Below are positions 48,929 through 53,013 of a stretch of 64,000 bases of DNA, piece after piece. The stretch's first letter is position 1. Every line of letters starts with the position of its first letter. A model generated the notes under the pieces. That model was not told where the DNA came from. It searched no databases and saw only the letters and a list, made by a program, of their open reading frames with translations. This DNA is from Escherichia phage vB_Eco_NR1: sequence record LR990704; one strand, 5' to 3'. The translations under genes and the position numbers were made by a program.

Positions 48929-49399
48929 CTAGCGATAAAAACCAAATTTACGATTAGTTTCAATGATCTTTCTTTCTTCTTCGGACATTCTCCAGCGTAG
49001 TCCAACATCAAAATGAGCCCAGACCATCCTAACAAATGCATTTATATCTTTAATATCTTCAATAATGAATGTTTTACTTTTAGAAGGTTGACTCGCTAAT
49101 TTAACTTTATCGTCTTCAAACATGTCAAAAAGACCATATTCATGAGCTCTTTTATAGCCTTTAATAGTTAAAGCTTCAGAAGAAGAAAATGGTGAATCTG
49201 TATTCTGCAAAATATCTTCAGTATGCTTTATAATTAGAATAACATTTTCTGGATATTTTCTTTCTTTTATATCTTTAATTAAAATATCCGGATTTTCTGC
49301 TAAAGGAATAATTAACGAGCATTTTTTATCAAGTGTATTTACTGATTTACCTTCTTTAGACATAAATTCTATTGAATAATGTTTTGCTACTTCAATCAT
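48929..49399 (-). CDS. hypothetical protein (156 aa)
   Basis: ORF track. Confidence 0.6.
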
Positions 49400-49552
49400 G
49401 TGATTTCCTTTTGCCTACTAATGGACCATCAGGAATTTTGTTTTCCTGGATATATTTCTCATTTTCTTCCATCATTTTACTGCCAATTTTAAGAAGCAAA
49501 TCCAAGGCTTCATTTGCTTTAGCCTTTGCCTCTTCTAACGTCATATCTTTGG

Positions 49553-49756
49553 TCATGATTTATCACCATAGATGTCTCTCATCAATTTAAGCGCTGAGCG
49601 TTCTAATTTCTTTTCTTTCTCAGCACTAATCATTGATTTCATCCATTCTTCTGACTCGTTCTGTATTTCTTTATTTGCCTGTTCAACCCAACCATCATCA
49701 ATATACATTGAGTTTGGTCTATTGAACCATTCAAGAATCTTCTTGAGAGCTTTCAT
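49553..49756 (-). CDS. hypothetical protein (67 aa)
   Basis: ORF track. Confidence 0.5.
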
Positions 49757-50228
49757 TTATTTTACCTAAAACAATAGTAGGAGCATCGTCAAATTTATGA
49801 ATTTTTAGTAAATTTGGATTTAAATTATTCCATAAAGAGGTAATAAAATATGATAGCGCACTTTCGTCCGTAATTATAAATTTATTTCCTTTATCTATTT
49901 TCCAATCATATATTGAATCATATGAATAGAAGGATAACGGTTTATTATTATAATATGCTTCACTAACATCAATATAGTTAGATTTAGTAAATGCTTGAAT
50001 TGCCATAAATGGAGAATTTTGTACAGTTTCAATAATTCCGATCTTTTTAAGTTTTATTTCAACATCTTCTGGAATTGGCATTGAAATAAAATCTTCTACT
50101 AGATACATATTATTGTCATATCTTTTATCAATCATTACTGCTACGGTAATTGGAACATCCTTAACAAACGCCATACTAATACTATTGATAGACATTTCAA
50201 ATAAAATTGCTTCCATAATTTTCCTCAA
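49731..50228 (-). CDS. hypothetical protein (165 aa); position of T4 mrh
   Basis: ORF track; identity by position only. Confidence 0.55.
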
Positions 50229-50566
50229 TCACAAGATGTAGATGAACAACTAGAATCACAAGAACTTCCACATGAATCGCCCGTCCATACATGAACAGGA
50301 ACATTAGTATCATATGAATCAGAACTAGACTGTGTTTTCTGTGTGTTAGATGATGTAGTAGGTACTGACCAGCGCCAAGGATTTTTATAATATTCTTGGG
50401 CTTCTTCATAAGTCATAGTAACTGCTTCTACTGTTCCATCTCCCATATAAACATACTCAACTACAGTTAAAGGAAGGTAGTCATTTGAAATAGGAACTAC
50501 ACCTTCTCCGGGAGTTGTAGAGAAAAAATCTGTAAAGAAACTTTTAAACCAATTAAAGATAAACAT
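50225..50566 (-). CDS. hypothetical protein (113 aa) with Cys/Ser-rich C-terminal tail
   Basis: C-terminus [18 protein letters not shown]; N-terminal hydrophobic segment. Confidence 0.55.
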
Positions 50567-50772
50567 TACAAAAAGCCTCTCTTGAATTCGACTTGCTTTT
50601 CGCCATAATCATATCGAATCTCTGCATTAAATTCGACAGAACCATCTGCGTACATCATAAATGAATGAACAACAACTTCTGTAGACCATGGTTGCAGTTC
50701 ATATTTCTTCATTACATGCCGTGAAATGATAATATCTAAATCTTCATTTGGTTTAATCCAACGATTTAACAT
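50566..50772 (-). CDS. hypothetical protein (68 aa)
   Basis: ORF track; early promoter immediately upstream. Confidence 0.55.
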   Translation of the reverse strand: MLNRWIKPNEDLDIIISRHVMKKYELQPWSTEVVVHSFMMYADGSVEFNAEIRYDYGEKQVEFKRGFL

Positions 50773-50789
50773 AGTGCTCTCCTCTATAA

Positions 50790-50837
50790 GATAATTCTAT
50801 TATACCATACTCATTTTGGAAAGTAAACCATTTAAAT
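50790..50837 (-). promoter_or_regulatory. early promoter downstream of soc terminator
   Basis: GTTTAC, spacer, TGGTATAAT. Confidence 0.55.
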
Positions 50838-50862
50838 GAAAAAAGGACTCCCGAAGGAGTCC
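50838..50862 (-). terminator. rho-independent terminator downstream of soc
   Basis: minus strand GGACUCC-uucg-GGAGUCC then U6. Confidence 0.75.
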
Positions 50863-50868
50863 TTGAAT

Positions 50869-51114
50869 TTATTCACCAGTTACTTTCCACAAATCTTCAT
50901 TTGCAGCAATCCATTCAGTACGTTGATTTTCTTCATATACTGTAGAATATGCTGCTTTTTCTGAAGGGAATGTCTGGTAATGTGCACCAGAAATTTTGTG
51001 AACGTCAGAATAAAGAGGGAAAGCTACGGAAATTTCCTTTCCTTCAATTTTCTTATTTCCATCTAATTTCTGCTCAAATGTTTTGATATTAACATAACCG
51101 CGAGTACTAGCCAT
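50869..51114 (-). CDS. soc: small outer capsid protein Soc
   Basis: 81 aa matching recalled T4 Soc; late promoter TATAAATA upstream and terminator downstream. Confidence 0.95.
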   Translation of the reverse strand: MASTRGYVNIKTFEQKLDGNKKIEGKEISVAFPLYSDVHKISGAHYQTFPSEKAAYSTVYEENQRTEWIAANEDLWKVTGE

Positions 51115-51144
51115 GTAATTCTCCTTTTATTTAAATTACATGAT

Positions 51145-51152
51145 TATTTATA
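51145..51152 (-). promoter_or_regulatory. late promoter TATAAATA for soc
   Basis: TATAAATA on minus strand about 30 nt upstream of soc ATG. Confidence 0.65.
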
Positions 51153-51197
51153 ATAAATTCTCGCGGCTTTTAAGTCGTCGTTTATTTAAACGAGCTA

Positions 51198-51716
51198 TTA
51201 ATAGCCTCGGTCTTGACGAGCGAAATTTTCAGCATTTTTCAGATAATAAAGTTTAAATATTTCTTCAGCTGACATTCCAAGAGCAATAAATTTATTCATG
51301 AAAAAGTGAAATTGGTCAATCAGTTCAAATTTAATTTCAAGCTGATCTTCAGGAGATAAGTCTTGAATTTTCTTGGATTGCATTTCAGAATAACGTTTCT
51401 TCCAAGGTTTCCATACGGCAGAAGCTTCTTTTTCACCATTACTCATACCACCAAGAGAAGTATATAGTTCGCGAGTTTCATCTGCGATATAATCGTCTTG
51501 GTTTCGCAACCAAGCAAGAACTTCTCCTGCAGTTTCAAGTGAATCAGGATGACGATTTGTTTCTGGTTTATCATTAGCCAAACGAATCTGTAAATGCCGC
51601 TGCATATCAAGCATAACCTGCAGTGGGTCAATATTGTGCATAATATTCTCAGCATATGCACGATTTGCTTTATCAACACCTTCGATCAAATGAGCACATT
51701 CATTAAAGTAAGCCAT
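51198..51716 (-). CDS. 56: dCTP/dCDP pyrophosphatase gp56 (MazG-like)
   Basis: ORF track 51198..51809 trimmed to MAYFNECAHLIEG (172 aa; T4 gp56 171 aa); upstream part overlaps a MotA-box promoter. Confidence 0.85.
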   Translation of the reverse strand: MAYFNECAHLIEGVDKANRAYAENIMHNIDPLQVMLDMQRHLQIRLANDKPETNRHPDSLETAGEVLAWLRNQDDYIADETRELYTSLGGMSNGEKEASAVWKPWKKRYSEMQSKKIQDLSPEDQLEIKFELIDQFHFFMNKFIALGMSAEEIFKLYYLKNAENFARQDRGY

Positions 51717-51775
51717 TATTTTTCCTTTCAATTCATGGGTTAGTAGATTAATTATACAATAAATATATAAAGCAA
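51717..51775 (-). promoter_or_regulatory. MotA-dependent middle promoter upstream of gene 56
   Basis: minus strand tTGCTTtA, 11 nt, TATAAT. Confidence 0.5.
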
Positions 51776-51787
51776 TAAGGAGGACAT

Positions 51788-51988
51788 ATGGTACAAAAAT
51801 TAATGGCACTTGTTAATGCCATAAAAGGTAATAAAAAACGTATAGCTTTTACTATTTCTGCTATGGTAGGAATTTTACTCTGGAACTTTATTCTATCACC
51901 TGTTGCAATTGCGCATGGTATTAATATTCCAGTAGTTACTCTTGATACATTTGTAGATTTAGCATTTGCTTTAGTTGGGTTGATTTAA
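51788..51988 (+). CDS. putative small membrane protein (66 aa) on opposite strand between 56 and 61
   Basis: AAGGAGG SD 4 nt before ATG; two predicted TM segments; ORF fits the 56-61 intergenic gap exactly (4-nt overlap with gene 61 end). Confidence 0.4.
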   Translation: MVQKLMALVNAIKGNKKRIAFTISAMVGILLWNFILSPVAIAHGINIPVVTLDTFVDLAFALVGLI

Positions 51989-53013
51989 ATCTTAGCATAT
52001 TTAGATAGCCGCATTTTAGCCATCAACCCCTGGGCAATATTATTTTTCATATATTCCATAATTTGTTCAGGGGTTGCACCTTCCTTTCTAATCATATCAT
52101 TGACATCTTTTGATTTCCAGGGAGATTTATCCCAAAACATAACCCTTTCTCCTGCATCAACTAATTTAGTCATTCGTTTGATAGTGTCAGGGTGACGAGG
52201 TTCATTATCTAAAACCCACACTCGTCTATCTTTAAATGGAACAACTTCTAGGTCTAATTGACCACCTGTAATAGCTATACCATTTTCAATAAAAAGTGAA
52301 TCTATAGGTCCTTCTAGAACATATACATCACCATCTTTAACTCGTTCAACACCGTAAATTTTTGTTGCCTCAGGATAAGCTTTAATGGTGATATATTTTT
52401 GAGGAGCATCTTTCTTTAATGCACGTCCTTGAAAAGACTCAGCTTTTCCATTAGCATTATAAATTGGAATAACAAGACGAGGCTCAGAAATTTCCTTTTT
52501 GTATGTTCCCGGTGCTATGCTATTAACTAATTTAGGCCATTCGGTTGTAAACCAAAGATATTTCCATTTATCCTTTGGAATACAACGAGCTTTTACATAT
52601 TTTATAATTGGATGGTCTTCCGCCAGTTTATCTAATCTAACACATGACGGAAGAGATTTAATTATTTTCTTCTCAGGTTGCTTAGGAAGTTCTTTAGGTT
52701 TTTCTACTGGACGACTTTTACCTTTTTCTTTTCTTATTTCAAAGATATACTCACGATATAAATCGGGTTCAAACTCCTTTAAATATATTCCGATTGGTGC
52801 ATGATAGTTACAGTTATAACAATGAATATTTCCTTCATTATTATCACCATAATACCATCCACGAGCTTTATTCTGGTCGGTTTTTGAATCTCCACAAACA
52901 GGACATCTAAACCGCAATTTAAAAGTTGAACTATTATTTACTTGTGTGAATTTAGGTAAATGAGCCAATGCACGGTATGCAAACTCATTATCAATCCAAG
53001 GTATTGATGACAT
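51985..53013 (-). CDS. 61: DNA primase gp61
   Basis: 342 aa as in T4 gp61; N-terminal zinc ribbon CPVCGD...CYNCNYH and Toprim region. Confidence 0.95.
   Translation of the reverse strand: MSSIPWIDNEFAYRALAHLPKFTQVNNSSTFKLRFRCPVCGDSKTDQNKARGWYYGDNNEGNIHCYNCNYHAPIGIYLKEFEPDLYREYIFEIRKEKGKSRPVEKPKELPKQPEKKIIKSLPSCVRLDKLAEDHPIIKYVKARCIPKDKWKYLWFTTEWPKLVNSIAPGTYKKEISEPRLVIPIYNANGKAESFQGRALKKDAPQKYITIKAYPEATKIYGVERVKDGDVYVLEGPIDSLFIENGIAITGGQLDLEVVPFKDRRVWVLDNEPRHPDTIKRMTKLVDAGERVMFWDKSPWKSKDVNDMIRKEGATPEQIMEYMKNNIAQGLMAKMRLSKYAKI

Follow-up and report, generated by a model that had tools for sequence, protein, structure and literature searches.

The Cys/Ser-rich C-terminal tail of Mrh.1, a small early protein of T4-like phages

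The mrh.1 gene and its tail

Escherichia phage vB_Eco_NR1 (record LR990704) carries, at 50225-50566 on the minus strand, an open reading frame (ORF) with an ATG start and a TGA stop, encoding a protein of 113 amino acids (aa) that ends in a Cys/Ser-rich tail. Here, we describe this tail, its conservation and its possible role. Positions refer to the window, that is, the whole stretch of 64,000 nucleotides (nt) that was analyzed. The window is a segment of a Tequatrovirus (T4-like) genome; over 49500-51200, its DNA is 97.5% identical to that of Tequatrovirus genomes, vB_Eco_CP and JK38 among them, and 533 phage records match this region. Along the minus strand, the genes follow in the order 61, 56, soc, mrh.2, mrh.1, mrh, srh, modA.4, modA.3, modA.2, modB, modA, with the ORF considered here in the mrh.1 position; the order soc-mrh.2-mrh.1-mrh-srh is shared with T4.

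The protein is identical to T4 Mrh.1 (NP_049642; UniProt P20706, "Mrh.1 hypothetical protein") at 110 of 113 positions. The substitutions, with the T4 residue given first, are T68V, N77K, and A95T, the last being the sole difference in the tail. The T4 protein has the same length, and its gene occupies the same slot between mrh.2 and mrh and has the same direction of transcription. Residues 3-113 match Pfam family PF23836 (DUF7206) over profile positions 1-107 of 107 (102.7 bits, cutoff 25.6), and the protein also matches phrog_2031 (5.6e-33); both are catalogue families with no assigned function. There is hardly any doubt that the ORF is the ortholog of T4 mrh.1 and belongs to DUF7206. Since both the gene and the family have been catalogued, mrh.1 itself is already known; a family-wide Cys-Asp terminus, on the other hand, appears not to have been described before.

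The initial annotation, made from the translation, had pointed to a Cys/Ser-rich C-terminal tail, and the tail is exactly as described there. It contains all cysteines of the protein, C99, C103, C107, and C112, spaced as C-x3-C-x3-C-x4-C. As a background set, we used 97 non-overlapping ORFs of the window (19,993 aa, 1.17% Cys). Among them, no other stretch of 14 or 18 residues has at least four Cys (chance expectation, 0.34 such 14-mers), and an 18-mer consisting purely of Cys, Ser, Asp, Gly, and Thr is expected 5e-7 times. Mrh.1 is also the only one of these ORFs with a Cys-Asp terminus. The features of the gene and its surroundings are listed in Table 1.

Table 1. Features of mrh.1 and the adjacent region, with positions in the window (A2, family alignment of 59 sequences; A5, tail alignment)
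Feature	Position	Strand	Remarks
mrh.1 coding sequence	50225..50566	-	113 aa plus TGA; PF23836, phrog_2031; nearly identical to T4
Cys/Ser tail, residues 96-113	50228..50281	-	low AlphaFold2 confidence, read as disordered; unique in the window
Internal Ser-Cys-Asp, S102-C103-D104	50255..50263	-	family-conserved motif of the penultimate Cys; columns at least 90% conserved in A2 and A5
Terminal Ser-Cys-Asp-COOH, S111-C112-D113	50228..50236	-	C112 invariant; codons vary
C99 codon	50270..50272	-	extra Cys specific to Tequatrovirus; Gly/Ser column in A5, Ser or gap in A2
C107 codon	50246..50248	-	extra Cys specific to Tequatrovirus, within the Ser spacer (A2 and A5)
N-terminal amphipathic helix, residues 2-16	50519..50563	-	AlphaFold2 helix 3-15; K8 and F11 at least 90% conserved
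Beta-hairpin core, residues 34-52	50411..50467	-	AlphaFold2 strands 34-40 and 46-52 around the EYVYMGDG turn; ahead of all other elements in conservation and prediction confidence
Ser/Thr-rich variable linker, residues 67-95	50282..50368	-	pLDDT <50 at 70-86; not alignable between genera
mrh.2	50566..50772	-	68 aa, upstream gene, phrog_1873; TAA stop overlaps the mrh.1 ATG (TAATG, 50564-50568)
Sigma-70-type promoter-like site	50799..50827	-	TTTACT-17-TATAAT, 10/12 matches, extended -10 TG; consensus match only; heads mrh.2-mrh.1
Intrinsic terminator-like hairpin after soc	50843..50864	-	same site annotated as terminator in phage OE5505
Shine-Dalgarno (GAGGA) and ATG of mrh	50214..50226	-	from sequence; mrh start as annotated in relatives

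Conservation of the tail and selection on the protein

Homologs of Mrh.1 are numerous among phages. In a tblastn search, the N-terminal 94 residues were found in 501 phage records, all with at least 80% identity, the tail being masked by the low-complexity filter. A profile search of a collection of 5.8 billion proteins yielded 120 proteins, nearly all with PF23836, and a single-sequence HMMER search against 1.84 billion representatives returned T4-like phage proteins only, plus one spurious repeat protein. In GenBank, at least 775 phage records have homologs; almost all of these are listed as Enterobacterales phages, with lengths of ~160-177 kb among the matches listed. No bacterial or archaeal homologs were found in a pattern scan of one genome for each of 185,579 species.

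Conservation was counted in 116 family proteins of 85-209 aa, and the composition of the tail was calculated from the last 25 residues. The C-terminus is Cys-Asp (112 proteins) or Cys-Asn (two proteins) in 114 of the 116, and Ser-Cys-Asp in 106; the two proteins with neither Cys-Asp nor Cys-Asn are P0006, a frameshifted fusion, and P0007, a chimeric fragment. Exactly two Cys are found within the last 32 residues in 109 of the 114 proteins. The gap between the two conserved Cys is comprised of 4-12 Ser/Gly residues, mostly 6-8, and the penultimate Cys is followed by Asp in 103 of 114. On average, the tails contain 43% Ser, 14% Asp, 13% Gly, 8% Cys, and 8% Tyr. Across the family, Cys is largely restricted to this region, with 8.3% within the tail and 0.1% outside it. 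None of the 114 tails has Lys or Arg, two have His, and one has a CxC or CxxC motif. Most tails carry three [Y/C]-[D/N] dyads, and in most members one or two Tyr-Asp dyads precede the Cys pair, the consensus being ...S-Y-D-S-G-S-(S)-C-D-S-[S/G]-x(n)-S-C-D.

In the A2 alignment, the columns conserved to at least 90% are K8, F11, P19, E37, Y40, G42, D43, G44, E47, V49, S102, C103, D104, S105, S111, C112, and D113, so that 7 of the 17 fall in the last 12 residues. The window protein has all the motifs of the family, namely the N-terminal W/F-x-K helix, the EYVYMGDG hairpin, and the C-terminal S-C-D...S-C-D. Both the Cys-Asp end and the internal Ser-Cys-Asp persist in members of the family alignment that are only 32-64% identical to the window protein.

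By contrast, the four-Cys spacing, which the initial annotation had suggested following in orthologs, differs between family members. C103 and C112 alone are shared throughout the family, the gap between them varies, and CxxC or CxC is almost absent; C99 and C107 are additions of Tequatrovirus. In these two columns, most other relatives show Ser, Gly, or a gap, and their flanking serine-rich stretch holds Tyr-Asp dyads. The T4 lineage has two extra Cys and no Tyr-Asp where other genera carry Tyr-Asp dyads; as TGT and TAT differ by one base, the exchange of Cys and Tyr takes a single change. Three Cys are found in a few other lineages (P0054, P0113), and in one variant (locus L035) the penultimate Cys lies ~13 residues further upstream. 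Because two of the Cys are lineage-specific, the spacing is variable, and CxxC is lacking, the tail does not form a fixed site of four Cys.

The homologs of the RB69/JS98/Karamvirus type (P0020, P0031, P0076) share with the window protein the WxK helix, the EYVYMGDG hairpin, the serine-rich tail with S-C-D...S-C-D-COOH, and synteny. However, they have two Cys rather than four, with Tyr-Asp dyads in place of the extra Cys of the T4 type, and have in addition a middle segment that is helical and basic and a hydrophobic stretch, IVVTAAAV, both absent from the T4 type. One protein, P0003 of Escherichia phage 235Ecol030PP (164 aa), is a mosaic Mrh.1 with the T4-type N-terminus and four-Cys tail and an RB69-type middle segment of ~50 aa (…MEEIIRQPEKAGNVGAGALPLNSKKLKEHL…IDTAPIITATAVSSW) inserted before the tail, which indicates recombination between sub-families that kept the tail. 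The most divergent DUF7206 members, P0118 and P0122 (194-201 aa), have an N-terminal insertion of ~70 aa after the first helix and end in ...SSCDSSSSYSSCD. Their locus (L037, Logan SRR28523263, 60 kb) contains small ORFs without Pfam matches, and the local gene order is not recognizably T4-like.

To compare substitution rates, we used ten non-Tequatrovirus loci of equal tail length. In the last ten codons, the proportion of synonymous differences (pS) is 0.53 and that of nonsynonymous differences (pN) is 0.097, yielding pN/pS of 0.18; the respective ratio for the EYVYMGDG hairpin core is 0.11. The codons are mixed: Ser is encoded by both TCN and AGY, Cys by TGT and TGC, Asp by GAT and GAC, and the stop codon is TAA or TGA. 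Judging from these sequence comparisons, the tail is a genuine selected element under purifying selection on the protein.

The initial annotation had noted that the tail could be a chance low-complexity region if it were absent from homologs or not conserved in them. Slippage can indeed yield serine-rich stretches, and an alternative-frame ORF is open here in Tequatrovirus, so that the tail might in principle be a by-product of this ORF or of a nucleic-acid element. However, the tail is present at the same position in 114 of 116 family proteins, and its conservation at 32-64% identity is accompanied by many synonymous changes and low pN/pS. No tandem repeat was found in the DNA of the tail region, and its RNA folding is no better than that of shuffled sequences (z = 0.06). 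The Shine-Dalgarno sequence of mrh overlaps only a part of the mrh.1 stop codon and none of the Cys-Asp codons, and other genera differ both in the stop codon and in the downstream gene, which is srh rather than mrh. Constraint on the nucleic acid therefore fails to explain the terminal Cys-Asp, as the codons vary, the Shine-Dalgarno sequence covers the stop codon only, and the downstream gene of other genera is different. Positional conservation in essentially all homologs, together with purifying selection, leaves the chance reading, or that of a by-product, effectively refuted and highly improbable.

The alternative-frame ORF (50197-50409, minus strand, 70 aa) overlaps the 3' half of mrh.1 and is open in all Tequatrovirus relatives examined; in the fusion P0006, the N-terminus of Mrh.1 is joined by a frameshift to the frame of this ORF. 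We considered it as a real gene; it is missing outside Tequatrovirus and was judged to be a shadow ORF of the sequence rich in Ser and Cys codons.

Predicted architecture, gene neighbourhood and published screens

Two AlphaFold2 monomer models were built on the A2 alignment (mean predicted local distance difference test score, pLDDT, 59.6). Residues 31-60 have block-mean pLDDT of 80-88, and a further helix is predicted at 53-61, following the hairpin, in which Y40, G42, G44, and E47 are invariant in A2. The hydrophobic moment of the N-terminal helix is 0.45, compared with 0.5-0.7 in other genera. The linker varies in length and sequence in A2, and it is here that P0003 has its 50-aa insertion. 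Most of residues 67-113 have pLDDT below 50, including 90-102, 107-109, and 111-113 of the tail region; the models thus suggest that the tail is probably flexible. The AlphaFold2 model of the RB69-type protein P0020 has the same hairpin and a low-confidence tail, with two added helices in its longer middle segment. Foldseek searches of the models against PDB yielded nothing with E <1, and the best match of the family profile in a PDB sequence search had E = 0.18, which is noise.

On inspection, the protein has no typical signal peptide or transmembrane segment, and the N-terminal helix, as far as its sequence goes, is too short and too polar to span a membrane. Therefore, Mrh.1 is presumed to be cytoplasmic. 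For an early protein with this presumed location, the disulfide-rich tail that had been suggested by the initial annotation is unlikely.

Short conserved elements within a low-confidence region, anchored at the exact C-terminus, could also represent a metal-independent linear motif. Some host protein would then read the free S-C-D-COOH and the upstream Y-D-S-G/S-C-D as a docking peptide, pseudosubstrate, or degron, and Cys would be kept for shape or hydrogen bonding rather than for chemistry. The remainder of the protein consists of isolated short motifs, the helix and the hairpin, as is typical of small phage proteins of host takeover, and the restriction of the family to Enterobacterales phages suggests a host-specific target. 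On the other hand, docking motifs usually have hydrophobic anchors, of which the tail has essentially none; with a single binding groove, one would rarely see SCD motifs at a spacing that varies over 4-12 residues; and an invariant Cys in an otherwise Cys-avoiding protein points to thiol chemistry. We consider the linear motif rather unlikely.

The synteny 61-56-soc-(mrh.2)-mrh.1-(mrh)-srh-modA.x-modB-modA is kept in 20 IMG/VR loci and in one distant Logan contig, and genera without mrh.2 or mrh still keep mrh.1. In particular, mrh.2 is missing in several genera that carry mrh.1 (loci L024, L032, L033, L035, L036), and, judging from loci L023-L036, mrh (49731-50216 in the window) is found in the Tequatrovirus loci only. 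Its paralog modA.3 (48929-49399), which has the same Mrh PHROG annotation, is retained in most other genera, and L035 has a single 181-aa ORF matching both mrh and modA.3. The stop/start overlap TAATG between mrh.2 and mrh.1 suggests translational coupling. As the two proteins have a similar WxK N-terminus and a "MxxDGxxE" hairpin, we also considered Mrh.1 as a tandem paralog of Mrh.2; this was rejected, hhalign of A2 against alignment A3 giving a probability of 0.8% and E = 0.07 over 13 columns.

Further along the locus, the window lacks two T4 genes near gene 56: within 51198-53013, dam, which T4 has between 61 and 56, is missing, and so is segF, a homing endonuclease gene that in T4 separates 56 from soc. 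Some 270 nt lie between gene 61 (51985-53013) and 56 (51198-51716), after which comes soc; three IMG/VR relatives (L017, L020, L021) also have 61 and 56 side by side. The gene 56 ORF called by the program, 51198-51809, starts with GTG and encodes 203 aa including a hydrophobic N-terminal extension, while homologs favour the 172-aa version with the ATG start at 51716. A small modA.x ORF in the 49392-49556 region is labelled [quoted passage not shown] in many T4-like records; apparently, the shared name modA has led to a wrong annotation.

The neighbours of mrh.1 also bear on a reading of the tail as a substrate of modification, either a core similar to those of ribosomally synthesized and post-translationally modified peptides (RiPPs), whose Ser/Cys would be converted to lanthionine or azoline, or a peptide that would take up phosphate, ADP-ribose, or sugar at its Ser, Tyr, Asp, or Cys residues. 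The ADP-ribosyltransferases ModA and ModB are encoded in the same early cluster, the composition of the tail resembles that of RiPP core peptides, and in a comparison with FxLD lanthipeptide precursors (TIGR04363), residues 95-109 give E = 0.034 and 14.1 bits. However, this score is far under the curated cutoff of 30 bits. Arg, the residue that T4 ModA, ModB, and Alt modify specifically, is missing from the tail. Moreover, there is no maturase-like gene among the conserved neighbours, which are small T4 early proteins, and the "leader" would be unusually long and holds a folded hairpin. Modification of this kind is, in our view, distinctly improbable.

The description of the protein as early in the initial annotation agrees with the promoter-like site located after the soc terminator and with the RNA class of T4 mrh.1, which is early (Wolfram-Schauerte 2022, PMC9697503, supplementary file 4). 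In the CRISPRi-ART screen of T4, mrh.1 was classified as "Semi-fit" with fitness 0.79, compared with a threshold of 0.7, and P = 0.069 (PMC11879866, supplement). Five genes of unknown function, including mrh.1, fell into this class; mrh.1 is the only one of its cluster, the neighbours mrh.2, mrh, srh, and soc being "Not fit" (PMC11879866). In the HIDEN-SEQ transposon screen, available as a preprint, insertions were tolerated at all 31 mrh.1 sites and the gene was classified as "Non-essential" (10.1101/2025.11.20.689424). We found no account of mrh.1 function in the literature, and none under DUF7206 or P20706, although full-text search handles "mrh.1" and "mrh.2" poorly and mentions may have been missed.

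A possible role for the tail and comparison with known systems

Our preferred, still tentative reading is that the tail is a flexible arm of thiolates and carboxylates that would ligate a metal or, alternatively, a metal or cysteine site of the host. As modelled, the protein consists of an amphipathic helix, a hairpin, a post-hairpin helix, and a variable linker, followed by a C-terminal arm that is acidic, Ser-rich, and free of Lys and Arg. In each of the Cys/Tyr-Asp dyads on Ser/Gly spacers, a soft or phenolate donor would stand next to a hard one, with the free alpha-carboxylate of the last residue as a further ligand. In this way, the arm could chelate a metal ion, most likely Zn or Fe, possibly between two chains, as most members have only two Cys; or it could enter a host protein at a metal or cysteine site. 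Localization or oligomerization would fall to the helix and the hairpin. Metal binding, which was one of the suggestions of the initial annotation, thus appears plausible.

In favour of the metal-ligating arm, we counted the nearly Cys-free body, the Cys-Asp units, the dyads, the Lys/Arg-free tail, the variable Ser/Gly spacers, and the "Semi-fit" score. The conserved thiols most likely do chemistry, given the avoidance of Cys elsewhere in the protein and its presumably cytoplasmic location. Several observations weigh against this reading. The absence of CxxC and CxC, the near absence of His (2 of 114), and the variable spacing mean that no known metal-site signature is matched, and two Cys, as found in most members, are too few for a single-chain Cys4 site. 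Searches with the tail only gave zero matches in PDB and, in Pfam, its own family and a non-significant match to PF12669 only. Low pLDDT is no proof of disorder. The CRISPRi-ART effect of mrh.1 is not statistically significant and could be polar, and in the conditional comparison of HIDEN-SEQ mrh.1 was unchanged (log2 fold change -0.16, q = 1; 10.1101/2025.11.20.689424). Finally, the T4 Mrh.1 protein was not quantified by liquid chromatography-mass spectrometry (PMC9697503, supplement). The latter is unsurprising, as its tryptic peptides of 8, 53, 4, 12, and 36 aa lend themselves poorly to detection.

The two invariant Cys on a flexible tail, one of them always adjoining the C-terminus, might instead form a redox-active dithiol arm. 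They would switch between the dithiol and disulfide states or bear a persulfide or thioester, as known from flexible pairs of C-terminal Cys in certain redox enzymes. To host thioredoxin/glutaredoxin or sulfur-relay proteins, the arm would then be a substrate, competitor, or trap. The Ser/Gly loop of 4-12 residues could close a disulfide, and class Ia ribonucleotide reductase alpha has a similar C-terminal shuttle pair of Cys. Still, this would leave unexplained both the Asp after each Cys and the Tyr-Asp dyads, the penultimate Cys is displaced by ~13 residues upstream in L035, and the conserved neighbourhood has no gene for a redox partner. We therefore regard the redox arm as unlikely, more so than the linear motif.

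A bolder version of the metal-directed arm is that the tail is a thiol-plus-carboxylate "warhead" on a disordered pseudosubstrate arm, threaded into a host metalloenzyme, or else a phytochelatin-like early Zn/Fe buffer; we consider this quite improbable. One candidate for the target of such an arm would be the membrane AAA+ zinc protease FtsH, whose metal centre would be blocked. FtsH controls sigma-32, and sigma-32 is a theme of the neighbouring genes mrh and srh. The warhead or the buffer, if real, would each be a novel kind of device by which a phage takes over its host.

Mrh.1 is among the many T4 early genes that still have no assigned function 35 years after sequencing. Its most conserved and chemically most distinctive part is the low-confidence tail with two invariant Cys-Asp units, and this gives experimenters a handle in C103, C112, and the terminal Asp, the chemistries in question being metal ligation, redox, and modification. 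If Mrh.1 is a metal- or thiol-directed effector, it would represent a new mechanism of phage host takeover; if not, mrh.1 stays an ordinary catalogued accessory gene.

Several known types of proteins were compared with Mrh.1 and rejected as matches. A zinc ribbon or knuckle with a structural Cys4 site was dismissed, as the window tail has no CxxC or CxC, the Cys gap is 4-12 residues, and most of the tail has pLDDT <50. The same applies to metallothionein and to the FeoB-associated Cys-rich family PF12669 (9.4 bits against a cutoff of 27, E = 1.8), given that the tails average 8% Cys and that 109 of 114 have two Cys. A RiPP precursor was dismissed on the TIGR04363 score (14.1 vs. 30 bits) and on the lack of Pfam matches to LanB/C/M, YcaO, or radical SAM proteins in the flanks of the loci, which are made up throughout of soc, mrh.2, mrh/modA.3, srh, modA.x, and the Mod ADP-ribosyltransferases. 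Resemblances to the C-terminus of CysE (EYGDGI) and to the eukaryotic degron DSGxxS were dismissed as coincidental, being in the wrong position or the wrong kingdom. Mrh.1 and two distant homologs had no match at E <= 1 among the PADLOC defence and candidate families.

Three kinds of systems have a partial likeness to Mrh.1. RiPP cores such as FxLD lanthipeptides and those similar to microcin B17 also form a Ser/Cys/Gly-rich C-terminal segment on a small protein; Mrh.1 differs in having a conserved Cys-Asp end and not a variable core. Class Ia ribonucleotide reductase alpha has a disordered extreme C-terminus that also bears two Cys with a few residues between them. That pair, however, belongs to a large enzyme and has fixed spacing and no Ser/Asp/Tyr-rich context, whereas Mrh.1 is devoid of a catalytic domain. 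Finally, proteins with flexible Cys-rich tails (PF12669, SlyD/HypB-type, metallothionein/phytochelatin) share with Mrh.1 a short N-terminal hydrophobic or amphipathic helix and a Gly/Ser/Cys-rich C-terminal tail. Compared with them, Mrh.1 has no CxC, CxxC, or CC, almost no His, mostly a much lower Cys density, and an N-terminus that is not transmembrane. The likeness to metal-binding tails or redox Cys pairs is to be read as functional analogy only; within it, the (gamma-Glu-Cys)n units of phytochelatin resemble the thiol-plus-carboxylate units of Mrh.1.

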